Source: a virus (taxonomy: Duplodnaviria; Caudoviricetes). Taken from it: 64,000 bases of DNA. Both the position numbers and the translations under genes were made by a program. The stretch is from positions 1 to 64,000 of IMG/VR virus record IMGVR_UViG_3300020047_004811. One strand, 5' to 3'. Each line of letters starts with the position of its first letter. The first letter of the stretch is position 1. Below, piece by piece: positions 4,618 to 34,254 of this stretch. Below the pieces are notes generated by a model. That model was not told the DNA's origin. It saw nothing but the letters and a program-made list of their open reading frames with translations, and ran no database searches.

Positions 4618-5901
4618 ATGTCTAAAGTAATTGCAACTGATCTCAAACCTAAAGATTTCGTAGATATAGATGCTCCTGCTATTCGAGGCTGGTGTAATGC
4701 GGCTAAGCTTAGTGGAATGATTTCTACCATTCAAGATTATAGTATAAGTGGCGTGATGCATAAATGGGTAACTCTCGTTACAGAAAAGGGTTTTCAAGCA
4801 GCATACCTACCTCTAACTCAAGAAGTAACTAAACAAGTTATGTCAGAGAAAGAGTTGGAAACTCGGGTTATCAAAACTAATATGAGATTCTTACCTAGAA
4901 CTATTCATGGGCAAGGCTCTGACCCTGAAATGTTTGTAGTGAATAAGGATGGCATTGTTATTCCATCATTTGATTTCCTACCTTCTCACAAACAAGTAAC
5001 AGTTAATCAACCATTCTGGGATGGCTTCCAAGCTGAGTTTAATATCCCCGGAGTGTCATGTCTCGACCAAACTATTGGACACTTACAAGCTGGATTATTT
5101 AATCTATATCGTGCGGCTATCAAACATAATAAAGATGCAGCCTTAACCATTAAACCAACGCTTGAAATTCCTCCTCATATGTTAACAGAGGGTAAGGATG
5201 AGCATGTTCAGTTTGGTTGTATGCCTAGTAAGAACGTATATGGTATGAAAGGAATCCAAGCTGATGGTAAGGACGTACTTGTCCGATCGGCTGGCGGACA
5301 TATTCACCTACAGCTAGACAACAAACAAAAGAAAAAAATTGAAGACTATGTTATAGCACTCGATGCAATTCTGGGAGTTGCTTGTGTATCTATGTTCGGT
5401 AATATAGATGACCCTATCCGTCGCCAATACTACGGACTAGCGGGTGAGTATCGTACTCCTAAACATGGTATGGAATACAGAACATTATCTAATGCGTGGA
5501 TGTGTCACCCGACTATTGCTTATGTAGTATTCGAGCTTGCTCGTAAGGTTTGTACGCTAGTAGACAAAGACTTATTCAAGCATTGGCAATTCGATAAGGA
5601 TGAGGTTATTTCTTGTATCAATGAATGTAATATTCCACTAGCTATTGAAATCCTACGTAGGAATGAAGAAATGTTTAGAGATATACTATATTCATTCTGT
5701 TATAGAGATGATAAGAATGTAGATGTTCTATACAATACTTTCTTAGCCGGAGCTGAGGTATTGATCGGCGACCCTAACGATCTAGTATTCAATTGGAATC
5801 TAAATGGGCAAAGAGATTGGTCTACATCATCTTCTCGTATCCACTATATGAAAGAGCGCAATCCAAACTATAATAAGGTCGCTAAGTTAGACCTTAAATA
5901 A
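4618..5901 (+). CDS. phiEco32-like COOH-NH2 ligase type 2
   Basis: Motifs GSDPEMF, DGFQAEFN, FGCMP, RSAGGHIH, YGLAGEYR, EYRTLSNAW. Confidence 0.85.
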   Translation: MSKVIATDLKPKDFVDIDAPAIRGWCNAAKLSGMISTIQDYSISGVMHKWVTLVTEKGFQAAYLPLTQEVTKQVMSEKELETRVIKTNMRFLPRTIHGQGSDPEMFVVNKDGIVIPSFDFLPSHKQVTVNQPFWDGFQAEFNIPGVSCLDQTIGHLQAGLFNLYRAAIKHNKDAALTIKPTLEIPPHMLTEGKDEHVQFGCMPSKNVYGMKGIQADGKDVLVRSAGGHIHLQLDNKQKKKIEDYVIALDAILGVACVSMFGNIDDPIRRQYYGLAGEYRTPKHGMEYRTLSNAWMCHPTIAYVVFELARKVCTLVDKDLFKHWQFDKDEVISCINECNIPLAIEILRRNEEMFRDILYSFCYRDDKNVDVLYNTFLAGAEVLIGDPNDLVFNWNLNGQRDWSTSSSRIHYMKERNPNYNKVAKLDLK

Positions 5902-7445: not shown

Positions 7446-7616
7446 ATGGATATATTTGGACAATGGATTAATGGTAGTGCCGACTGGCATTTCCTTCATC
7501 AAAGAAGAAAAGATAATAGAGTAAGGTTCAATCATTGGACAGATGATGACTGGGATTTACGATCTGAAATAACAAAACACAAATCAGTTAAATTTAAATT
7601 AACTTTGTTATACTAA
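7446..7616 (+). CDS. FxLxL micro-protein family member
   Basis: Manual translation MDIFGQW...VKFKLTLLY (56 aa). Confidence 0.65.
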   Translation: MDIFGQWINGSADWHFLHQRRKDNRVRFNHWTDDDWDLRSEITKHKSVKFKLTLLY

Positions 7617-7644
7617 GCCAACACAAAATAGGGAGGTAGGCTTT

Positions 7645-9117
7645 ATGTCTCTAAATCTTGCAATCGGACAAAATGTAAGAATCAGTTCTGATGTTATTAA
7701 AGAAGGTGCTAAGGATGATGATCTCTTAGGAGAACTAGGTGTCCCCGGATTATTCCGACATCTAACATTCGAGATTCTCAAGCTCGAAAATGATGCTACT
7801 CGTGGGGCGATTGCTATCTGTCGCATAACTAATCCTGAGATACTGAAGACTGTAATTCCGGGGGTTAAGGAAGTCAAATATGAAGGGGAGTTAACGCTTC
7901 TTGCATCTGAACTTGTCTTAGCTAATACCAAAGTCACTCTCGATTATGTTATTGAAACAGCTAAGTCTAAGGATCAGATGATTAAGGAATTGTTTGTTAT
8001 TCGTAAGGCTCTTGAAGCCCGAGGTTTAGACAAACGAAACAAAGAGATGCGAGCTAACTGGAAGGAAATTCAAATCCTTCGAGGTGAGGTTCAAGGTGCT
8101 ATGCCAGCTATTGCAGGGGATGTTACTGTATATCTCCCTAGACAGCGGGTTCGGTTTACGCTTAAACCTAATGAAGTTCCCGGCTCTGACGAAGAATCAA
8201 TTAAGAAGTTCAAGCAACTACTAACCAATAAACTGAGGGGAATAAGATCACAACGTAAGACTAAAACTCTTGAGACTAAAGTCGTATTCGGTATGATGAG
8301 TGTTCAAAAGAGTGGCGGTGTTTATCTTCAAGAACGATCCCTTCTAACAGCATACGAGGAGATGATGAAGACAACATTAGAAACAGACAAAAAACCTATT
8401 GATCCCAAGGCTAATTACGTTGGGATTGAAATTGAGTTTATCTACAGCGGTAAGTATGAGATTCTCAAGAACCTTTTGATTGCCGCTAAACTTCATAAAC
8501 ATATCACATTGAAAGGTGATGGCTCACTTCGTTCTTGTCATAACTACGCAGGAGCTGGACTAGAAATGAACATTCTCTGTAAGACTACAGAGGTTGAAGA
8601 TGTCATGAAGCGACTTGACTCTGTGTTTGCTAACCCAGAGATCGACGGCTATACCAATCGTTCATGCGGACTTCACGTTCATGTGGATGCCCGTAACCGA
8701 GACGTTAAGCTTATGTATAAGAACTTCGTTAGGGTTCAATCAATCCTTCGAGGCTCTCAACCTGTAGGTCGTATTAAGAATACTCACTGTCGTGCAAACA
8801 CAACAGATAAACTAGAAGACCTACAGTCTGGTGGTTCTGGTGGCGGGGGTAATAGATATTGGGTTGTTAACGGTATGTCCTATGACAAGCATAAGTCTAT
8901 AGAGATTCGTATCCATGAAGGTACTGTAAACTGTGAAGACATATATAACTGGGTTGCTTTCCTCGATGCAGTTGCATCACATAAGAAAGAGATTCCTAAG
9001 AATGAACTCAAGTTTGCTGAAGACCTCGTAGCTAAGTATGACATTGACATTCCAGTTAATGCCGTCGACTACGTTGACCGCCGCATTGAACGATTTAATT
9101 CATTATCAATTGCTTAA
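7645..9117 (+). CDS. putative amidoligase (Amidoligase_2-like) with N-terminal extension
   Basis: GIEIEF, DGSL, SCGLHVHVD, RYWVVN, SIEIRIHEGT motifs. Confidence 0.85.
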   Translation: MSLNLAIGQNVRISSDVIKEGAKDDDLLGELGVPGLFRHLTFEILKLENDATRGAIAICRITNPEILKTVIPGVKEVKYEGELTLLASELVLANTKVTLDYVIETAKSKDQMIKELFVIRKALEARGLDKRNKEMRANWKEIQILRGEVQGAMPAIAGDVTVYLPRQRVRFTLKPNEVPGSDEESIKKFKQLLTNKLRGIRSQRKTKTLETKVVFGMMSVQKSGGVYLQERSLLTAYEEMMKTTLETDKKPIDPKANYVGIEIEFIYSGKYEILKNLLIAAKLHKHITLKGDGSLRSCHNYAGAGLEMNILCKTTEVEDVMKRLDSVFANPEIDGYTNRSCGLHVHVDARNRDVKLMYKNFVRVQSILRGSQPVGRIKNTHCRANTTDKLEDLQSGGSGGGGNRYWVVNGMSYDKHKSIEIRIHEGTVNCEDIYNWVAFLDAVASHKKEIPKNELKFAEDLVAKYDIDIPVNAVDYVDRRIERFNSLSIA

Positions 9118-9130
9118 AGGGAGCAAATAA

Positions 9131-10408
9131 ATGTGTAAACTACTAATCATGACCGGGATTACGGAAGGTCGTGTCGCTGAGGAATTTATTCAGCGCATGG
9201 CTATCCCTATGTCTAGGACAAATGCCCATGGTATTGGGTACTCAGCCGTCGCTTCTGACGGTGAGCTATTCTCTGAACGATGGTTGAATAACGAACAGTT
9301 CTTTAGTACAAAAGATGTTATGACTCCAAAGATTGCTAAAACTCTTGAAGCTTATGCAAATCGTTTGCCAGCCGGGGCACTTGATCTTAATTACTCACGG
9401 TTTGGCAAGCTAAACTTTGAAGATGTTCGGACAATTACAATGCATACTCGCTTCGCTACATGTGGTCGAGAGTTTGCTAACACCCATCCATTTATCTATG
9501 AAGATACTTCACTCATTCACAATGGTACAATTCGTAACGCATTCACTTCACATTACTCAACAGGTCTTGATGTAAACAAGATTAGTACATGTGATTCCGA
9601 GGCGGCTTTACAAACGTACCTCTCACAAGGGGTTAACCTTGATACTACGAAAGCTAAGGCATGGCTTGACATGCTGTCTGGTAGCTGGGCTTTTGGTATT
9701 CTTTCACGTAACGCAGCGAATAATCGTGTGCTTGATGTGGTTAGAGGAATGTCTACACTCTACTATATGGAAGTTGATGGACTCGGCAAAATCTTCACGA
9801 CTGATGACGATGATGCGAAAACAGTTATAAAAGATATGAAGCTCACCTTCACTAAAGAACCGGGGCTTGTCAAGATGGATGAGATGTATCGTTACGATGC
9901 AACTACCGGAGAATACTTGGAGAGTGTGGATATCAAACCAGTATACAAGTCGTATGGGAGTGATTACTCAAAGACAAGTGGGAGGACGACTACCGCCGGT
10001 ACTGGGGCGGGGACTACTACGACTAGCAACTCCCAATCAAACAAGACTAGTCGATTCAACGTCAAGAAACCCGGAGAAGCTCTCATGGCTCTGGTTGATG
10101 CTCTTAGGGATGACCCTAATTTCATGGCTAGTATGCCGGATATTTTTACCGTCAATTCTACCAAAGAGAATCTCAACATTGACTTTAGAAAAGTTACAAA
10201 GAACTGTGGCGATCCATCCTATCCTCTCCTCGATCGACTGGACATTTTTGATATGGTGTATGATCGTCAGTATGTTGCTATGTATGAGAAGCTATCTACT
10301 GAGGTAAGAGAGTTCGTCCGTCAAACAGATGCTCGGGAAGGATTCAAGTCAGCTCGTAAGCTTATCGAGTCATTAGATAAGAAGTCACATCTTAGTATTG
10401 TGGGGTAA
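9131..10408 (+). CDS. class II (Ntn) glutamine amidotransferase
   Basis: N-terminal MC, HGIG, HTRFAT, NTHPF, HNGTI, CDSE. Confidence 0.88.
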   Translation: MCKLLIMTGITEGRVAEEFIQRMAIPMSRTNAHGIGYSAVASDGELFSERWLNNEQFFSTKDVMTPKIAKTLEAYANRLPAGALDLNYSRFGKLNFEDVRTITMHTRFATCGREFANTHPFIYEDTSLIHNGTIRNAFTSHYSTGLDVNKISTCDSEAALQTYLSQGVNLDTTKAKAWLDMLSGSWAFGILSRNAANNRVLDVVRGMSTLYYMEVDGLGKIFTTDDDDAKTVIKDMKLTFTKEPGLVKMDEMYRYDATTGEYLESVDIKPVYKSYGSDYSKTSGRTTTAGTGAGTTTTSNSQSNKTSRFNVKKPGEALMALVDALRDDPNFMASMPDIFTVNSTKENLNIDFRKVTKNCGDPSYPLLDRLDIFDMVYDRQYVAMYEKLSTEVREFVRQTDAREGFKSARKLIESLDKKSHLSIVG

Positions 10409-10411
10409 TCT

Positions 10412-10579
10412 ATGAGATTCCGCCAGCTTAAAGCAAGACCTAGAGTTCCTTATTGTTTCATATACTGGAACGATCCTGAGGATAATCACAATGGGATAGA
10501 TGTTCAGGGATATGACGGGGGTTGGATGTGGACTGAGGGTGGAAATAAGCTAAGCTTCAAACTTGAGTTAATCTATTGA
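10412..10579 (+). CDS. FxLxL micro-protein family member
   Basis: Manual translation MRFRQL...LSFKLELIY (55 aa). Confidence 0.75.
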   Translation: MRFRQLKARPRVPYCFIYWNDPEDNHNGIDVQGYDGGWMWTEGGNKLSFKLELIY

Positions 10580-10586
10580 GGTATGT

Positions 10587-10769
10587 ATGATTTTACTTCA
10601 ACGAACTAATCAAGTTGGGATAGTAGAGAATCAACTATATTTTGGATTCCTTATTCCAGAAGAAGACGAAGTACAAACCTTACAAGAAACCCCAATTGGA
10701 TATAGACCATACGATCTAGATAATACTAGACGATGGTGGAGAAACTTTAGACTGGAGCTTATACTATGA
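10587..10769 (+). CDS. FxLxL micro-protein family member
   Basis: MILLQR...RNFRLELIL. Confidence 0.75.
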   Translation: MILLQRTNQVGIVENQLYFGFLIPEEDEVQTLQETPIGYRPYDLDNTRRWWRNFRLELIL

Positions 10770-10948
10770 TTATTCGTCAGCTTAATAATAGTGAGCGCAA
10801 TAATGGAGAGAGTCTATCTCCCTATGATTTTGTTATCAGCGGCGAATATACTAAAAGACAAGGTTACCTACATAATCGTCGTGGTAATGGCTGGCAATTC
10901 AACTATGACACACCACATACTAAATTTATACTGGAGCTTGTCTTATGA
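10766..10948 (+). CDS. FxLxL micro-protein family member
   Basis: MIIRQL...TKFILELVL. Confidence 0.75.
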   Translation: MIIRQLNNSERNNGESLSPYDFVISGEYTKRQGYLHNRRGNGWQFNYDTPHTKFILELVL

Positions 10949-11124
10949 CTATTAGAATACGTCAAGTATTACAGAAACCCAACCCTGATAATAAGAGCTT
11001 TAGTTTACAATTTATTAGGTGGCTGGGTGGGGATGATAGATGGGGGTTAACAAAGAAAGGTGGAGCTTGGAGTTTCAACACTGAAGGTGAAAAGAGTTCA
11101 TTCAAACTGGAGCTTATTAAATGA
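10945..11124 (+). CDS. FxLxL micro-protein family member
   Basis: Manual translation MTIRIRQV...SSFKLELIK (59 aa). Confidence 0.75.
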   Translation: MTIRIRQVLQKPNPDNKSFSLQFIRWLGGDDRWGLTKKGGAWSFNTEGEKSSFKLELIK

Positions 11125-11903
11125 AAACAATGATTGCATATTCAAATCGTTCCTGTGTCACTGGGAAACAAATTCGTGAAGCAATGCGAGCTAAGCGTAA
11201 GCGTACAAGCCGCCGGGCTAAGTGTGATCTATTCATTCGTTGGGGTACAACAGAAGAGTTCCCTAATGTAAGATATAAGAAAGAACTAAACTCGTTAGAA
11301 GCTGTGGTGCGCACAGCAAATAAACTAACGATGCTACAAACCCTACTCAATTCCGGTATAGCTACCCTAGACTTTAGTAGTGACCCTACAATGCTCGACT
11401 CGTTCAGAGATCGGGAGGGTAACGTCTATATCCGGAATAGATTAGGTGTTGTAAGATATGGAAATGACTTTAACCCAGACCGAGACTTATATTACAGTCG
11501 TCCGGTTCGATTTAAACGTCGGGAATACCGAGTCCATGTAGTTAATGGTCGAATCTTGGGAGCATATGAGAAAGTGCCGTTAGTCTCGGCGACCGCAGAA
11601 AATCAAAGTCCTACGGCAGCAGAAAATAGACCTAAGCTTTATAAATCAGACACCTGTAAATTCATTAGGTGCGATCTTCAAGCCGAGGGATGTCGTGTCA
11701 ACGCCGCCGCCCAAGAACTTTGTATAGCCGCCGTTAGATCGTTAGGGCTGGACGTAGGTGGGGTAGACTTAATCCGAGATAAGAACGGAGTCTTTACTGT
11801 TGTCGAAGTTAATAGCGCACCAGGGTTGAATGATCTAAACATCGAGAGATTTGTTCAAGCTATCAGGGAGTTCTATAATGAAGATAGTGTGGTCACAGCT
11901 TAA
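11121..11903 (+). CDS. ATP-grasp amide ligase (RimK/phiEco32-like)
   Basis: REYRVHV, LGLDVGGVDLI, VVEVNSAPGL. Confidence 0.85.
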   Translation: MKTMIAYSNRSCVTGKQIREAMRAKRKRTSRRAKCDLFIRWGTTEEFPNVRYKKELNSLEAVVRTANKLTMLQTLLNSGIATLDFSSDPTMLDSFRDREGNVYIRNRLGVVRYGNDFNPDRDLYYSRPVRFKRREYRVHVVNGRILGAYEKVPLVSATAENQSPTAAENRPKLYKSDTCKFIRCDLQAEGCRVNAAAQELCIAAVRSLGLDVGGVDLIRDKNGVFTVVEVNSAPGLNDLNIERFVQAIREFYNEDSVVTA

Positions 11904-12015
11904 CGATCATGAGATTAACCACGACGATAAGGACACATATAAGTTTATTGAACACGATGAATACTACGACGAAGAGTGGTTTATGTCATTCCGACTAGAG
12001 TTTATAATGGAGTAG
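11878..12015 (+). CDS. FxLxL micro-protein family member
   Basis: Manual translation MKIVWSQL...MSFRLEFIME (45 aa). Confidence 0.7.
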   Translation: MKIVWSQLNDHEINHDDKDTYKFIEHDEYYDEEWFMSFRLEFIME

Positions 12016-12017
12016 CT

Positions 12018-12191
12018 ATGATTATCTCTCAGGTTAGTAAAAAATATTTGCAGCAGAATAGAAGAGTATATACTTTTATACTATATAAAGATAGAGATAC
12101 TTACGGTAAAAGCATACACTCAGATGATTGGTCTAGAATAACAAATAGAACCCCACAATACTACTCCTTCACACTGGAGCTAGTAAGATGA
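12018..12191 (+). CDS. FxLxL micro-protein family member
   Basis: MIISQV...YSFTLELVR; start reassigned to 12018. Confidence 0.7.
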   Translation: MIISQVSKKYLQQNRRVYTFILYKDRDTYGKSIHSDDWSRITNRTPQYYSFTLELVR

Positions 12192-12346
12192 AAACTATAT
12201 CATTCTTACAATTTAATAACCGTAGGAATTATCTTATGCACTCTGATGTATATAGATTCTATCAGATTAGAACCAAAACCGAATTAGGAGGGTATCTACT
12301 AAGCCCATGGTATCAATCCTTTAAACTATCGGTGATATATGAATAG
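12188..12346 (+). CDS. FxLxL micro-protein family member
   Basis: Manual translation MKTISFLQF...QSFKLSVIYE (52 aa). Confidence 0.7.
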   Translation: MKTISFLQFNNRRNYLMHSDVYRFYQIRTKTELGGYLLSPWYQSFKLSVIYE

Positions 12347-12482
12347 GATGTGGGTTCAGTATGGTTGCGCTATGAATCATGATTCTTTCCAGCTTAGATC
12401 GTTTCCAAACGAGCCTTACTTTCCAACTGGTATTGCTAGAGTATACTATACATCATTCTGTTTGAGGTTAATTTATGAATAA
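12339..12482 (+). CDS. FxLxL micro-protein family member
   Basis: Manual translation MNRMWVQY...TSFCLRLIYE (47 aa). Confidence 0.7.
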   Translation: MNRMWVQYGCAMNHDSFQLRSFPNEPYFPTGIARVYYTSFCLRLIYE

Positions 12483-12609
12483 ATACTATGTTCAATATGG
12501 TCGGGCGAGATATAAAGGAAATATGTTTAGGTTCTATAGTACATCTAATAGTAGTATGGGATTTAACCCTAAAGTTACATTCCAATTGAGTTTAGTATAT
12601 GAAGAATAG
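12475..12609 (+). CDS. FxLxL micro-protein family member
   Basis: Manual translation MNKYYVQY...VTFQLSLVYEE (44 aa). Confidence 0.7.
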   Translation: MNKYYVQYGRARYKGNMFRFYSTSNSSMGFNPKVTFQLSLVYEE

Positions 12610-12751
12610 AATGTGGGTTCAGTATAACTTTGATGATTGGTGTCCGGGCAGTGAAAAGGGTAAGTTCCATATGTTCCAAAATGAACCACATTTTCCAACC
12701 AAGTCCAATTTAGAATACTACGGGACATTCGTTCTAAGACTATACTACTAG
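12599..12751 (+). CDS. FxLxL micro-protein family member
   Basis: Manual translation MKNRMWVQY...GTFVLRLYY (50 aa); close paralog of 12339-12482. Confidence 0.7.
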   Translation: MKNRMWVQYNFDDWCPGSEKGKFHMFQNEPHFPTKSNLEYYGTFVLRLYY

Positions 12752-12758
12752 GAGTTAT

Positions 12759-13022
12759 ATGCAATTCATACAATTAGCAGTAAGTCCTGGGGCTGGTATT
12801 CCTGATTCAGATGGTTATTGTTTTGGTCAATTACAACCAGAATCATATAGAGATGGAACTCTCAAATATAAATTCAGATATCACCCTAAGAGTAATGGAA
12901 ATTTGGGTGGATGGAAATGTAACTTGGCTCACAAAACAAGTTTCAAACTAACCCTAACCTTCGAGGAATCATATGGATTACGGAACCCTGATCCTACTCA
13001 TAGTAACTCATATCCTTTTTGA
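12759..13022 (+). CDS. FxLxL micro-protein family member
   Basis: MQFIQL...TSFKLTLTFEE plus tail. Confidence 0.65.
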   Translation: MQFIQLAVSPGAGIPDSDGYCFGQLQPESYRDGTLKYKFRYHPKSNGNLGGWKCNLAHKTSFKLTLTFEESYGLRNPDPTHSNSYPF

Positions 13023-13380
13023 CTTTGTCCTCCAGTCTAGGGATGTCGCCACTAATAAGTCCTCTAATATCAAGTACCTAATCCCACACCTAGTTATACT
13101 AGGATTCGGATTAATGATTTTCACTAAACTCTCTGGACGATACTCTCCAAACCAAGCTATATTATTTGTATGCTGGAACGTAATACTACACGGAGTCATT
13201 GACTGGAATATTTGGAGGGTGTATAAGAGATTGGTATTGTGGCGAACCAAAGGGCAAGCCGACTATGACTACAAGTTCTACGAGGATGGTATGTTCTATG
13301 ACTTCATAGCATACGACCAAGGGTTACACGCACTGTGTTATCTAGGACTTGACTGGACTGTAAGGAGTTTCGTGGTATGA
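12973..13380 (+). CDS. DUF3307-like membrane protein
   Basis: THILFDFVLQS, HGVIDW, DQGLH; several TM helices. Confidence 0.75.
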   Translation: MDYGTLILLIVTHILFDFVLQSRDVATNKSSNIKYLIPHLVILGFGLMIFTKLSGRYSPNQAILFVCWNVILHGVIDWNIWRVYKRLVLWRTKGQADYDYKFYEDGMFYDFIAYDQGLHALCYLGLDWTVRSFVV

Positions 13381-13607
13381 AAAAAGAAGAATGGCATATT
13401 GTTCAACTTGGGGATAATCGACAATGTACTGTCAATGGGGTTCCTGGCTGGCATTATTGTGTCGGTTTTCAAAATCAACACATTCGTTCTGGTAGCAAAC
13501 ACAGGTACACTTGCGCATTAAACGGAGCCCTTGCCTACGGATCACTTAATACTTGGCAAGTTCACCCAGAACATCGAACTAATTTCTCCCTAACTATAAC
13601 CTTCTAG
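13377..13607 (+). CDS. FxLxL micro-protein family member
   Basis: WHIVQL...TNFSLTITF. Confidence 0.6.
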   Translation: MKKEEWHIVQLGDNRQCTVNGVPGWHYCVGFQNQHIRSGSKHRYTCALNGALAYGSLNTWQVHPEHRTNFSLTITF

Positions 13608-13792
13608 GAGGCTATATAATACTATTCATAATACTAATGGTTCTTCTAACCTGTAAACTTCTAACCCCGAGTGTCGCTGGAAATGTATTTCTCCTAGTGA
13701 CCTTGACAATACTAGAGTATATGCTTATAGTATTAGGTATGTTTGTCACTCCAGCGTTTGTATTCTATCTATACTTTTATAAGAGGTGAGCC

Positions 13793-14005
13793 ATGTATTG
13801 CTTTGCCCAAGTAGATCGGTACGATGAGGAAGATGATGATCCTTATACAGGGTTAATTTCTGATCGAGATAAGTTAACATATAAAGATCGCAATCGGATT
13901 GTATCTAACGATGTTTATCCTTTCAAAGAATTTACTAAGTTAGTTAAATCTGATTCAAAGAAAACCACAGATAGAAGTTACAGATTCTATTTAATATTGG
14001 AGTAG
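13793..14005 (+). CDS. FxLxL micro-protein family member
   Basis: MYCFAQV...YRFYLILE. Confidence 0.6.
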   Translation: MYCFAQVDRYDEEDDDPYTGLISDRDKLTYKDRNRIVSNDVYPFKEFTKLVKSDSKKTTDRSYRFYLILE

Positions 14006-14007
14006 CA

Positions 14008-14160
14008 ATGTCTATACAGTATCTACAGTGGAGTCAAGAATATTCAAAACAATTTCCAGAACTTAATTCAATATATAAGATCGGAACGATTAGTAACCCT
14101 GGTCCTCATGCTCCCCATCCTTGGCTAACAAATTTTCGACTTATCTTAATTAAGGATTAA
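14008..14160 (+). CDS. FxLxL micro-protein family member
   Basis: Manual translation MSIQYLQW...TNFRLILIKD (50 aa). Confidence 0.7.
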   Translation: MSIQYLQWSQEYSKQFPELNSIYKIGTISNPGPHAPHPWLTNFRLILIKD

Positions 14161-14162
14161 TC

Positions 14163-14294
14163 ATGTATATTACAACATGGTGTCAGTTTGTTTCCACAAA
14201 CAAAGTAACGCCACTACGACTTGTTCCTGTTTATCATACGATAACTCAGGGACATCCACAAGTTAACACATTTCGCCTAACTCTAACATACTAG
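14163..14294 (+). CDS. FxLxL micro-protein family member
   Basis: Manual translation MYITTWCQF...NTFRLTLTY (43 aa). Confidence 0.7.
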   Translation: MYITTWCQFVSTNKVTPLRLVPVYHTITQGHPQVNTFRLTLTY

Positions 14295-14301
14295 GAACAC
14301 A

Positions 14302-14553
14302 ATGGACAAGCGAGACAAGGTTGCACAAGTCTTGCTCCAACTTAAAGATCAAGCCGACGAACTCCTAGACAGCGATGCGACTTCTGAAATGACTGCCGAG
14401 GAGATTGTAGTATTAGCAACTGAGTTAGTGACTTCTAGCCCAGTGACTACAATAGAATACGGACAACCCATAGCCTCGGTCGATAGATCACAAGTTACAT
14501 TCATGCTAGACGAAGAGTTCGAGTTTCCTTTATATGGAGAAGACGATGATTAG
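14302..14553 (+). CDS. acidic hypothetical protein
   Basis: ORF track; D/E-rich. Confidence 0.6.
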   Translation: MDKRDKVAQVLLQLKDQADELLDSDATSEMTAEEIVVLATELVTSSPVTTIEYGQPIASVDRSQVTFMLDEEFEFPLYGEDDD

Positions 14554-14743
14554 ATATATAAATCAGTTCTCTGGACTAAAAGATACAGATATAGATAGTA
14601 ATATCTTTATGATACATGTTACAGTGAATGGCGCAGACTTTATTAAATATGGTCCGCATACCACCCATTACCCAAGACAAGACTATGAGTTCTTCATTAC
14701 TAAATACAGTAAGAAATTTAAACTAGAGTTAATCTATGACTAG
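14546..14743 (+). CDS. FxLxL micro-protein family member
   Basis: MIRYINQF...KKFKLELIYD. Confidence 0.75.
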   Translation: MIRYINQFSGLKDTDIDSNIFMIHVTVNGADFIKYGPHTTHYPRQDYEFFITKYSKKFKLELIYD

Positions 14744-14981
14744 AATTAAATACATGTCTCAGTATGGTTTGCTATGGACTGACTGGTTTACAGTCGGGCC
14801 AAATATAATTATCCGTGGAGTTATAGATACTACTAACTTTAGATACGAAATCAGAGAGTTTGATTCTAGTATTGTAATGGATGGAACTGGTGACAGTCTT
14901 AGACACTGTAAGGAATTAATCCGACAAGGATTGATAGACTCTGGAGTTAAATTTGACGGAGAGATTAGGAGGCGGTCATGA
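14736..14981 (+). CDS. hypothetical protein
   Basis: ORF track; start overlaps previous stop. Confidence 0.65.
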   Translation: MTRIKYMSQYGLLWTDWFTVGPNIIIRGVIDTTNFRYEIREFDSSIVMDGTGDSLRHCKELIRQGLIDSGVKFDGEIRRRS

Positions 14982-15181
14982 AGTTCTTTCAGTATAGTAG
15001 ATCATCTATATCTTCTGGTGGATGGGATGGCTGCATTGGGCCTTATGTCATAAGTATGTGTGTTGGTAATAAGAGATCGTTTAAGGTTAATAACGTAGTA
15101 GGTACTAGAACTCATAATGAGAGTTGGGAGTACATAGGCAATCCTTGGCGCACGTCATTCAAGCTTGAGCTTATCTATTAG
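14978..15181 (+). CDS. FxLxL micro-protein family member
   Basis: MKFFQY...TSFKLELIY. Confidence 0.75.
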   Translation: MKFFQYSRSSISSGGWDGCIGPYVISMCVGNKRSFKVNNVVGTRTHNESWEYIGNPWRTSFKLELIY

Positions 15182-15324
15182 ACCTATCCTTAAGTAAATC
15201 TTCCAGATATATATGTTTTACTATGCAGGCTTCAAACTCATTCCTAGTTGTTACATGTAGTCCGAGAGGTTGTCAACAACTATTTTCAATTAAATTCAAT
15301 ATACTAATAATTACTAGAGGTTAC

Positions 15325-15531
15325 ATGAACAAGATATACTTCCAGTTTTCCGACGACTCGTCTGACGAGAACCTAGAGTTTATGTACTTAAATCCTATAA
15401 GTGTATATTACGAAAGGGTTGACATGCACAATCCCCCAGGAGAAGCCAGTACCTACGAGGACGAACAAGAACTAAAAGATAACTTCGATGGTCAACTAAA
15501 CTCATTCCGACTGGAGTTAGTATATGAATAG
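15325..15531 (+). CDS. FxLxL micro-protein family member
   Basis: MNKIYFQF...NSFRLELVYE; start reassigned to 15325. Confidence 0.75.
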   Translation: MNKIYFQFSDDSSDENLEFMYLNPISVYYERVDMHNPPGEASTYEDEQELKDNFDGQLNSFRLELVYE

Positions 15532-15700
15532 TTTTTATGTATTCCAGTGGAGAGAAGGAAGTATGTGTACAACTCTAAAAGACGGAACTTACAAATATAA
15601 AGATGATAATGGGCGAACCTGCGAATATTTACACCTTGGGATAGCAAACATCAATACTGAATATACAAGGTTCAAACTTGAGTTAATCTATGACTCTTAA
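15524..15700 (+). CDS. FxLxL micro-protein family member
   Basis: Manual translation MNSFYVFQW...TRFKLELIYDS (58 aa). Confidence 0.75.
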   Translation: MNSFYVFQWREGSMCTTLKDGTYKYKDDNGRTCEYLHLGIANINTEYTRFKLELIYDS

Positions 15701-16271
15701 AAACTTATACTCAGTATACTACAACGACTCAACTCTAGATCAAGAAACTATAGACTTCATTAAAACTTGGCATTACTCCAAGTCAGCTCGCTCCCTTCAA
15801 CAAAAACATGTATTCAAACTTGTAGATAAAACTACAGATAGACTTATCGGGGTTGCTATCTACGGCAACCCTATGTCTAGGCATCACAAGGATATCCTAG
15901 AGTTGCGTAGGCTGTGCTTGATTGACGACACCCCACGTAATACTGAGAGCTGGTTTATCTCCCGAACCCTTAAATGGCTCGGGGCTAACACTGACTATAC
16001 TTCAGTAATATCCTTTGCTGATCCTAATCACGGACACGCTGGCACTATTTACAAAGCCAGTAACTTCGAGTACACTGGACTTGAGGACAACGGAAATCCT
16101 AGGGTTGTTCAGTATGGTGATAAGCAATATCACATACGACAATACTATCAAAAGAAGGGTGGGGATTACTCGCCCGATGCTTTGAAACTACAAGCCGCAG
16201 TTAAGTCAGGGGAAGCTGAGATTATAAAACAAGAACGCAAACATAGATATATGTATTACTTGAGGAGCTGA
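15690..16271 (+). CDS. mom: Mom-like GNAT DNA adenine-modification enzyme
   Basis: WHYS, GVAIYG.P, ELRRL, NTESWFIS, ISFADP..GH.GTIYKASNF.YTG. Confidence 0.8.
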   Translation: MTLKNLYSVYYNDSTLDQETIDFIKTWHYSKSARSLQQKHVFKLVDKTTDRLIGVAIYGNPMSRHHKDILELRRLCLIDDTPRNTESWFISRTLKWLGANTDYTSVISFADPNHGHAGTIYKASNFEYTGLEDNGNPRVVQYGDKQYHIRQYYQKKGGDYSPDALKLQAAVKSGEAEIIKQERKHRYMYYLRS

Positions 16272-32773: not shown

Positions 32774-34254
32774 ATGAAATACTCAATCCTCGGGCTATTA
32801 CTATTAACTAGCTGCGGTTATATTAATCGAGAAGTTCAGAGTCTTACAGGAAGACCAAGCTCTGTTTGTCATAATGGAATTTCGTATCTACAATTCGCAT
32901 CTGGCGTTTCAGTAGAGTATGAAACCATAGTTCTAATCGAAGGAACCGAGCAATTAACTAATCCATCAATTAAAAAGTGTAAATAATAAGGGAGCAATAT
33001 GTCAGAAGAAACCGTAGTTACAGAACCACAAACAGAAGAAAGCTTGAAGTTTGATCCTAAAGAAGTAGAGGCTCAGCTTGTCAAGATCGCACAGGAACGT
33101 GCAGAAGACCCAGCAGAGACAGCCGCAACTTGTTATAGAACATACCTACCGTTCTATAAAATTATGAGTAAGAATAAAAAGCTTAGCACCCGCGCATTGC
33201 GTAGGATTCTAGATTTCTTGATTCTATATCCACTAGAGTCAGATAAAGCAAACGCCACTTCAAAAGAAGAAAGAGAGATGATGGAGCTTTGCAATACTCT
33301 GATTCAGGCTAAGTTTGTTCTAATTCTAGATACATACAATAACCACGCTCAGGAACTATACGACGCAGCGAACTCTCCTCTAACTGAGGAAGAGGCGAAC
33401 CAAGTAATTGCAGACCTAAAAGCAGGTGGGGCTAGTGATGAAGATATCGCAGCTATTCACAAACCAGTTGACAACCATAATGTTGAAACTGTAGTATCAG
33501 CTCAAGGAGAATAACATGAGAGAATATTTCGTAGTGATGATTAAAGAAGGAAGCACAGAGAATCTCAAACTTCTAACAGAGAAGTTAAATGCAGGATTCT
33601 ATATTGACAATAGATATGACGTTGGTCGTAGTTTAATGATCACTCTTCGTAAAGATGCAAGTGAGAACGAACTCAGAGGTACTTCGATAGCCTTAGATAG
33701 TATTTCAGTTGCCGGGGCCGCCAATTTTACATACGCAGGAACAATCCCATTTTAAGGAGAATAGTATGAAGAATAAAATTATTGCCGGACTTATTATAAT
33801 CACAGGGATGCTATTTACCGGAGCAGTAGTATTTAAAAGCTACCTTACAGATACAGACAGTAAACTATATGCTTTGGGAATGATTACAGGATTGTCTGCA
33901 GTTATGACCAAACTACTAATTAAGGAATAAATTATGGCTGGAAAATGGAATAGACAACAAATCGGTAAGATCACAAAAAAGACTCCAGATAAAGAACGAT
34001 TCCCAGAAAAAAGGGATGCCACTGGAAAAGTAATTGACCCCGGAGTAAGAGAATTCTCTTTCAAAGTTGATCAAGATATCACACTGAAGGCTGGCACCTA
34101 CCTTAATCTAGAGAATAAAGCATTTAAACTTAGGTCTCTAGAAGCTAACAAGGAAAAGATGTCAGAAGAGAATTACGAGAAAGCTCTGGAACGAATCAAC
34201 AAACATCCAGATTTTGTATTCTTCGAGGTTATTAAACTAGATAAAGAATCCTAG
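32774..34254 (+). other. run of hypothetical ORFs (lipoprotein 32774-32986, 32999-33514, 33516-33755, small membrane ORF ending 33930, 33934-34254)
   Basis: ORF track; lipobox LTSC in the first. Confidence 0.6.

Follow-up and report, generated by a model that had tools for sequence, protein, structure and literature searches.

We find that positions 7446-15700 of the phage record IMGVR_UViG_3300020047_004811 (IMG/VR; Caudoviricetes) carry on the + strand an array of twenty small open reading frames (ORFs) encoding micro-proteins of 43-87 residues, and comparison of their sequences supports the view that they constitute a true paralogous, protein-coding and fast-diverging family with conserved ends. 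The window analysed is the first 64 kb (64,000 nucleotides) of this record; whole-genome screens covered all of its 87,316 bp. The reading we prefer, to which we assign a probability of roughly 50%, is that the family consists of diversifying, host-directed small binders made by translational coupling. Eleven of the twenty ORFs are shorter than 60 codons, and together the copies take up ~4% of the genome. They are interleaved with genes for an Amidoligase_2 protein, a class-II glutamine amidotransferase (GATase), an ATP-grasp ligase, a DUF3307 protein, two other conserved small proteins and a Mom-family protein. The + strand arm to which the array belongs holds early, nucleotide-metabolism and replication genes, including those for a class-II ribonucleotide reductase, a primase-helicase and a DNA polymerase, and the structural genes sit on the - strand arm.

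The N-terminal block of the family opens with Met and a short, mostly hydrophobic stretch that leads into h-x-Q-h (h, hydrophobic), and the C-terminal block is [S/T/N]-F-x-L-x-[L/F]-[I/V/T], frequently followed by Tyr-Glu/Asp. A strict screen for both blocks among the 430 ATG-initiated ORFs of 40-110 codons in the whole genome gave 17 distinct matches, all on the + strand between 7446 and 15700, and none on the - strand; ~0.03 matches would be expected from the motif frequencies of the - strand. A hidden Markov model (HMM) of the twenty members revealed no further members in the 87-kb genome. When the HMM was instead built from relatives in other phages only, nine window members (five with E < 0.01) outranked the first unrelated ORF, and leave-one-out HMMs recovered ten of the twenty at E <= 0.004. 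Members 14534 and 15325 are marginal and score at the level of the best non-family ORF. The initial annotation had described twenty ORFs of 43-87 residues with fixed terminal motifs, and all of them could be located on the + strand, as follows (SD, Shine-Dalgarno sequence; E values are from leave-one-out HMMs unless stated otherwise).

7446..7616, + strand: member of 56 residues (MDIFGQW...FKLTLLY), just 5' of Amidoligase_2; GGAG SD; E 0.0024
10412..10579, + strand: member of 55 residues (MRFRQL...FKLELIY), 3 nt past the GATase stop; E 1.2e-6; 36% identical to its positional orthologue in contig L026
10587..10769, + strand: member of 60 residues (MILLQR...FRLELIL); terminal motifs only; E 1.9
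10766..10948, + strand: member of 60 residues (MIIRQL...FILELVL), ATGA overlap with the preceding gene; E 9e-8; relatives-only HMM E 6e-7
10945..11124, + strand: member of 59 residues (MTIRIRQV...FKLELIK), overlapping the ATP-grasp start; E 2e-8; relatives-only HMM E 3e-6
11878..12015, + strand: member of 45 residues (MKIVWSQL...FRLEFIME), start overlapping the ATP-grasp end by 26 nt; E 8e-6
12018..12191, + strand: member of 57 residues (MIISQV...FTLELVR); E 2e-4
12188..12346, + strand: member of 52 residues (MKTISFLQF...FKLSVIYE); E 0.001; BLASTP link to 14978, E 2e-5
12339..12482, + strand: member of 47 residues (MNRMWVQY...FCLRLIYE), recent paralogue of 12599; terminal motifs; 44% identity over 48 residues with 12599, pairwise E 1e-10
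12475..12609, + strand: member of 44 residues (MNKYYVQY...FQLSLVYEE); terminal motifs only
12599..12751, + strand: member of 50 residues (MKNRMWVQY...FVLRLYY); terminal motifs; pairwise link to 12339
12759..13022, + strand: member of 87 residues with a 20-residue C-terminal extension ending THSNSYPF; E 0.004
13377..13607, + strand: member of 76 residues (MKKEEWHIVQL...FSLTITF); terminal motifs; BLASTP link to 12759, E 4e-6
13793..14005, + strand: probable member of 70 residues (MYCFAQV...YRFYLILE), the weakest of the twenty; motif-level only; E 6
14008..14160, + strand: member of 50 residues (MSIQYLQW...FRLILIKD); terminal motifs; weak BLASTP link to 14978
14163..14294, + strand: member of 43 residues (MYITTWCQF...FRLTLTY); terminal motifs only
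14534..14743, + strand: member of 69 residues, or 65 from 14546 (MIRYINQF...FKLELIYD); E 0.06
14978..15181, + strand: member of 67 residues (MKFFQY...FKLELIY), orthologue of 3200-3457 in contig G001/L015 (35% identity over 66 residues, pairwise E 2e-6); E 1e-6
15325..15531, + strand: member of 68 residues (MNKIYFQF...FRLELVYE); terminal motifs; start with its own SD
15524..15700, + strand: member of 58 residues (MNSFYVFQW...FKLELIYDS), last 11 nt overlapping the Mom start; E 0.0025

Three starts were corrected to internal ATGs, at 11878 (rather than TTG 11851), 12018 (rather than GTG 11976) and 15325 (rather than 15223), each of which has its own SD and opens with the family N-terminus. The start of the 14534 member is probably 14546, with GGAG 7 nt upstream. 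Recent duplication within the array, proposed earlier for 12339 and 12599, is borne out by the strings NRMWVQY and F.NEP.FPT, which are present in both, and by the pairwise match given above.

At least five related uncultured phages share the family and its gene order, with 2-16 copies seen per contig. The first of these, G001, a 75-kb IMG/VR contig, was found with a degenerate DNA pattern for FKLELIY[DE], and further viral and metagenome contigs were found by ATP-grasp protein alignments. Three of the four loci matched by the DNA pattern (L009, L010 and L011) were rejected as chance matches; L009 lies antisense to a 667-codon gene. First scans of IMG/VR with the ATP-grasp and amidoligase proteins returned distant relatives, themselves without family members, or none. 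With the window included, copy counts run from 2 to 20 per contig, several of the contigs being short fragments:

G001/L015: 8 members; the contig begins inside the GATase gene
L025: 9 members; 8.8-kb contig
L026: 2 members; nearest ATP-grasp, 75% identical
L028: 3 members; short contig
L022: 3 members; short contig
L019 (= L020 = L027): 16 members; more distant clade

Positional orthologues of the micro-proteins are 25-54% identical, compared with 72-75% for the ATP-grasp and DUF3307 proteins. Between the close relatives L022 and G001 the ratio of nonsynonymous to synonymous substitution rates (dN/dS) is 0.39-0.40 for two members and 0.05-0.08 for the adjacent genes for DUF3307 and an acidic protein. 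At one position, L022:1011-1190 and L015:2362-2541 are only 48% identical between neighbouring genes that are 95-98% identical at the protein level, which suggests replacement or very fast change in a single slot. In the L019 clade the N-terminal block is sharp and the C-terminal block is weakened to an alternating aromatic strand, and some members lie beyond Mom, outside the enzyme module.

The coding character of the array is apparent at its start codons. An SD core (GGAG, GAGG or AGGA at -17 to -5) precedes 17 of the 20 member starts, compared with 12% of the 186 other ATGs in the region, and adjacent genes of the array abut or overlap by 4-26 nt, the single real gap being one of 143 nt (15182-15324). 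At the residues of the motifs the codons vary synonymously: Phe is encoded by TTC 24 times and by TTT 12 times, Leu by five codons, and Gln by CAG 21 times and by CAA 16 times. The C-terminal block shows, in addition, a bias at two codons. Its Glu is GAG in 20 of 26 cases, compared with 33% of Glu codons genome-wide, and the Leu before this Glu is CTG in 14 of 26, compared with 5.5% of Leu codons genome-wide. The resulting CTGGAG stands 7-10 nt upstream of the next ATG and serves as the SD of the next overlapping gene, and the frequent Tyr-Glu/Asp ending arises because TATGA overlaps the next start codon. The enrichment of CTG-GAG and the TATGA/ATGA overlaps favour an explanation in which the shared ends have no protein function and are only a nucleic-acid junction cassette of SD, start and stop that keeps ribosomes coupled, as do the junction repeats of 20-37 nt, which are 62-96% identical. 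The synonymous variation, the conservation of internal blocks across phages and a dN/dS below 1 nevertheless bring this explanation close to refuted. Moreover, three window members (7446, 13377 and 14978) keep the motif although no downstream gene overlaps them. The spacers behind 7446 and 13377 contain the SD of the next gene, and both members have Thr at the Glu position; 14978 keeps its Glu (CTT-GAG) though no gene follows for 143 nt. Among the relatives the motif Glu is GAA in six genes, several of which have a spaced next start or carry the motif far from the gene end. The synonymous variation and the retention of the motif without overlap indicate that the C-terminal block is a protein motif with an SD inside it and not a mere junction cassette. 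The initial annotation had itself raised the possibility that the motif arises only from a DNA signal. Such a signal does exist, CTG-GAG being the SD of the next gene, but it is not the whole of the motif, in which Phe, Leu, Gln and Glu vary synonymously.

Two alignments, A4 and A6, of 30 sequences each and together drawing on all seven sources, define what is conserved. In both, Gln is the only invariant residue; Phe and Leu come close to invariance. Of 36 motifs in all, 26 have the Glu, and within the window the count is 10 of 20. The A6 alignment also contains two semi-conserved internal blocks that recur in many members, aromatic-x-F-h and G-x-W-x-[YF]. The middles of the proteins, first described as unrelated, are indeed variable in length and sequence, but they are not wholly unrelated, given these recurring blocks. 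The proteins span isoelectric points of 4.1-10.1 and contain 12-24% aromatic residues, and no hydrophobic segment is visible in the member translations. Beta-clamp-binding motifs of the QL[SD]LF type place hydrophobic residues at +1, +3 and +4/+5 after a Gln; this identity for the N-terminal block was rejected, since in A6 only +1 is hydrophobic after the Gln, and +3 to +5 are polar and variable.

Two AlphaFold2 runs with family alignments gave models with mean predicted local distance difference test (pLDDT) scores of 60.3 and 65.6, each with four short strands and an unpaired C-terminal block; in the second model this block has the highest mean confidence. The pairing of N- and C-terminal strands expected earlier is absent from both models, which are themselves too weak to decide the matter. 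A comparison of the better model with 48,161 PDB chains by VIA-align found nothing at Z >= 2, and a homodimer prediction for member 10412 returned neither support nor counter-evidence.

Searches outside the clade agree in their outcome. Neither megablast of the region nor tblastn of one member gave a match among 50,697 GenBank phages, and a homologous-protein search with family alignment A1 returned the window's own proteins only. Profile searching, which the initial annotation had proposed, was carried out with HMMER against 1.84 billion representatives and gave eight matches, all within this phage clade. Ten members compared with Pfam and PHROGs v4 gave nothing below E 0.1, thirty compared with PADLOC-DB gave no match, and ESM Atlas look-ups of two members gave no usable match. 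The best match of profile A6 in the PDB (E 0.9, residues 1286-1331 of spike glycoprotein chain 9ea0_A) was treated as chance. Judged by these searches, the tandemly expanded family is new, lineage-specific and absent from the curated families searched.

Every related phage has a single member, adjacent to the ATP-grasp or DUF3307 gene, whose C-terminal extension ends in FDDIPF, SDDIPF, DDDSLPF or NDCLPF. These members are positional orthologues of window 12759-13022:

L015:1589-1774, member with a tail like the tip of SSB, the protein that binds single-stranded DNA
L025:7541-7741, SSB-like tailed member
L028:947-1189, SSB-like tailed member
L019:9820-10029, SSB-like tailed member

DDDIPF is the conserved C-terminal hexapeptide of bacterial SSB (SSB-Ct; PMC5872125), and the relatives' DDIPF, DDSLPF and NDCLPF endings match it; an acidic stretch followed by [IL]-P-F at the very C-terminus is found in the L015, L025 and L028 members. 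They differ from SSB in that the tail is confined to one member per genome and that no oligonucleotide-binding (OB) fold or single-stranded-DNA-binding domain is evident. Unrelated proteins of 81-85 residues, encoded directly after the ATP-grasp gene in the Grimontviridae phages GAP52 (L017:10038-10283) and SE131 (L018:10115-10372), end in DEDIPF and DDKIPF, so an SSB-tail-like peptide may be a recurrent companion of the phage amidoligase module. Its position beside that module suggests where the module's target could be looked for. The only other ORF of the window's genome that ends in PF is 33516-33755, in the replication arm, which encodes 79 residues ending YAGTIPF.

If the micro-proteins are host-directed binders, the array would yield twenty translated paralogues, small, aromatic-rich and probably all-beta cytoplasmic proteins, which the early/middle arm would express from a chain of translationally coupled genes. 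They share a fixed frame of four blocks, h-h-x-Q-h with the invariant Gln, aromatic-x-F-h, G-x-W-x-[YF] and F-x-L-E-[LF]-[IV], connected by loops that change quickly in length and sequence, and copy number shifts by local duplication and loss. Each paralogue may present different loops on one small scaffold and so act in host take-over or counter-defence; the anti-defence or effector-library version of this proposal is plausible. The T-even internal proteins, described below, offer an analogy as a diverse set of proteins that counter defences (PMC3012670). Through their SSB-like tail, the tailed members of the relatives would be directed to the hub of host replication/repair interactions. At the RNA level the C-terminal block has a second job, its Leu-Glu acting as CTG-GAG, the SD of the next gene, where cistrons overlap.

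Several observations weigh against the binder reading. Membership is uneven, with eight of the twenty (10587, 12339, 12475, 12599, 13377, 13793, 14008 and 14163) supported by short terminal motifs and pairwise links; together with the leave-one-out results this makes the core of the family solid and its fringe motif-level. No confident fold was obtained (AlphaFold2 pLDDT of 60 and 66; ESM Atlas models of two members at 0.38-0.42), and no similarity to any anti-defence or defence family was found in Pfam, PHROGs or PADLOC. The window's own tailed member, 12759-13022, has the homologous extension with a degenerate tip, SNSYPF, that contains no acidic residues. Finally, an invariant Gln would be unusual if it were purely structural; it hints at some particular role in chemistry or recognition, which binding by variable loops leaves unexplained. 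The early regions of phages are full of unexplained small genes, and one scaffold amplified to twenty copies and kept across a whole clade with changing copy number is rare. Were the paralogues binders with different targets, the array would be a natural small-scaffold library and a compact source of new inhibitors. The family is also a clear example of codons that spell a protein motif and a ribosome-binding site at once.

The neighbouring genes bear on what else the family might do. The initial annotation had placed the array within and after an amide-ligase cluster and ending at a Mom-like gene, an arrangement that the Pfam matches below and the 11-nt overlap with the Mom start uphold.

4618..5901, + strand: phiEco32-type COOH-NH2 ligase type 2, just upstream of the array (Pfam PF14395, E 9e-12)
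7645..9117, + strand: Amidoligase_2 (Pfam PF12224, E 9e-9)
9131..10408, + strand: class-II (N-terminal nucleophile, Ntn; Cys2) glutamine amidotransferase (Pfam GATase_6, E 4e-8)
11121..11903, + strand: RimK/R2K-type ATP-grasp ligase (Pfam RimK, E 3e-7; R2K_3, E 6e-6)
12973..13380, + strand: DUF3307 membrane protein, kept in relatives (Pfam PF11750, E 7e-9)
14302-14553 and 14736-14981: acidic 83-residue and 81-residue proteins, non-family conserved small genes
15690..16271, + strand: Mom-family DNA-modification protein at the array end (Pfam PF25680, E 2e-32; 69% identical to the G001 homologue)

The PF14395 ligase, PF12224 amidoligase, class-II GATase and RimK-like ATP-grasp genes lie side by side on one strand, as in the module of the phiEco32, LUZ24 and RIO-1 type, which the literature treats as an operon that would form gamma-glutamyl amide or unusual peptide bonds and whose product is unknown (PMC4819975). 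The window carries this module with the micro-protein genes interleaved, so the micro-proteins could be its substrates, carriers or tags, with the invariant Gln, the motif Glu or the C-terminus being modified or ligated. Members follow every module enzyme gene in the window, L025, L015 and L019; Gln is the sole invariant residue; the substrate of the phage module is unknown (PMC4819975); and RimK-type ATP-grasp enzymes modify protein C-termini, with R2K enzymes predicted to be protein modifiers (PMC4431377). We nonetheless consider this explanation unlikely. GAP52 and SE131 have the full four-enzyme module in the same order, with small ORFs of no relation to the family at the equivalent positions; the module can thus do without the micro-proteins. 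Nor was any family member found in 204 kb of other fetched loci, including seven more distant phages with a related ATP-grasp gene. No Ser, Thr, Lys or Asp position and no C-terminal residue is conserved, only half of the window members have the Glu, and the L019 members beyond Mom stand apart from the module. Residues 70-107 of GlmS are matched by the GATase profile, in which Arg73, Asn98 and Gly99 have conserved counterparts. We take Arg73 of GlmS to bind the alpha-carboxylate of free glutamine, and its retention makes peptide-bound Gln an unlikely substrate. The CDSE motif of the GATase, which falls outside the aligned part, is probably the equivalent of GlmS Asp123.

The same observations disfavour the earlier suggestion of RiPP-like precursors (ribosomally synthesized and post-translationally modified peptides). 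Several small precursor-like genes do adjoin an ATP-grasp ligase, as in graspetide or microviridin-type systems, but A4 and A6 contain no conserved positions for the graspetide core residues (Thr/Ser or Lys with Asp/Glu), there is no leader/core layout, conservation is domain-like over the full length, and the ATP-grasp protein matches RimK/R2K. Nor does the family show the co-occurrence with an ATP-grasp ligase that graspetide precursors would require, as GAP52, SE131 and the seven more distant phages lack it. A more specific form of the substrate explanation, in which the family is an interchangeable tag or carrier library that the module uses, through the invariant Gln or the C-terminal strand, as a phage-encoded protein-conjugation system, strikes us as a long shot; were it true, the widespread phiEco32-type module would at last have a substrate, in this lineage.

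Two further explanations concern the protein ends themselves. The micro-proteins could be virion-internal, injected proteins whose N-terminal block is a capsid- or scaffold-targeting signal and whose variable remainder is cargo. Their conserved N-terminus and diverse remainder recall the T-even internal proteins (IPI, IPII, IPIII and the hyperplastic IP loci), a small and very diverse set, thought to counter host defences, that shares only a short conserved N-terminal targeting sequence (PMC3012670), and no part of the L019-clade proteins is nearly as well conserved as their N-terminal block. In the T-even phages, however, the shared part is a leader of ~10 residues that is cleaved off, and the proteins are packaged in the virion. 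Here the C-terminal and two internal blocks are conserved as well, which points to a domain and not to a leader alone, and the genes, with 8-20 tandem copies per fuller contig, belong to the early/replication arm and run on the other strand from the structural genes. No sequence similarity to the T-even proteins was found, and no conserved acidic cleavage-type motif was seen after the N-terminal block, a judgement made without comparison with real capsid-targeting sequences. We regard this origin as quite improbable. It is very doubtful, too, that members swap N- and C-terminal strands to build a beta structure, homo- or hetero-oligomeric, whose role would be structural or one of sequestration. 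Hydrophobic residues alternate in the strands at both ends, and the C-terminal block is unpaired in both monomer models and the most confident part of the second, but the models are of low confidence, and isoelectric points from 4 to 10 together with widely differing loop lengths are unlike a regular polymer.

A member lies directly 5' of the Mom-family gene in three phages (window 15524-15700/15690-16271; L015:3200-3457/3454-4038; L019:13001-13198/13198-13758). The member stop overlaps the Mom start in the window (11 nt) and in G001 and abuts it in L019, and the arrangement of these reading frames suggests that the two genes are probably translationally coupled. A small ORF overlapping or abutting a mom-family start recalls the com-mom arrangement of phage Mu. 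Com, a zinc-finger translational activator, differs from the member here, which has no Cys4 site and belongs to a family of twenty copies.

The smaller neighbours also recur in relatives. G001 and L019 have the acidic 83-residue and the 81-residue proteins at matching positions, and the acidic protein recurs likewise in L022 and L025; a 50-residue two-helix membrane protein (13637-13789), encoded 3' of DUF3307, has a counterpart in L025. None of the three has a Pfam match, and tblastn of the 81-residue protein gave no match among the 50,697 GenBank phages. In the GATase (9131-10408) the Ntn domain keeps Cys2, and the C-terminal half, ~190 residues, is without a Pfam assignment. The array's sole sizeable non-coding gap, the 143 nt at 15182-15324, could hold a promoter or another regulatory element. 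Upstream, in the early region, a 185-codon ORF at 2794-3351 matches the collagen triple-helix repeat (PF01391, E 7e-7).

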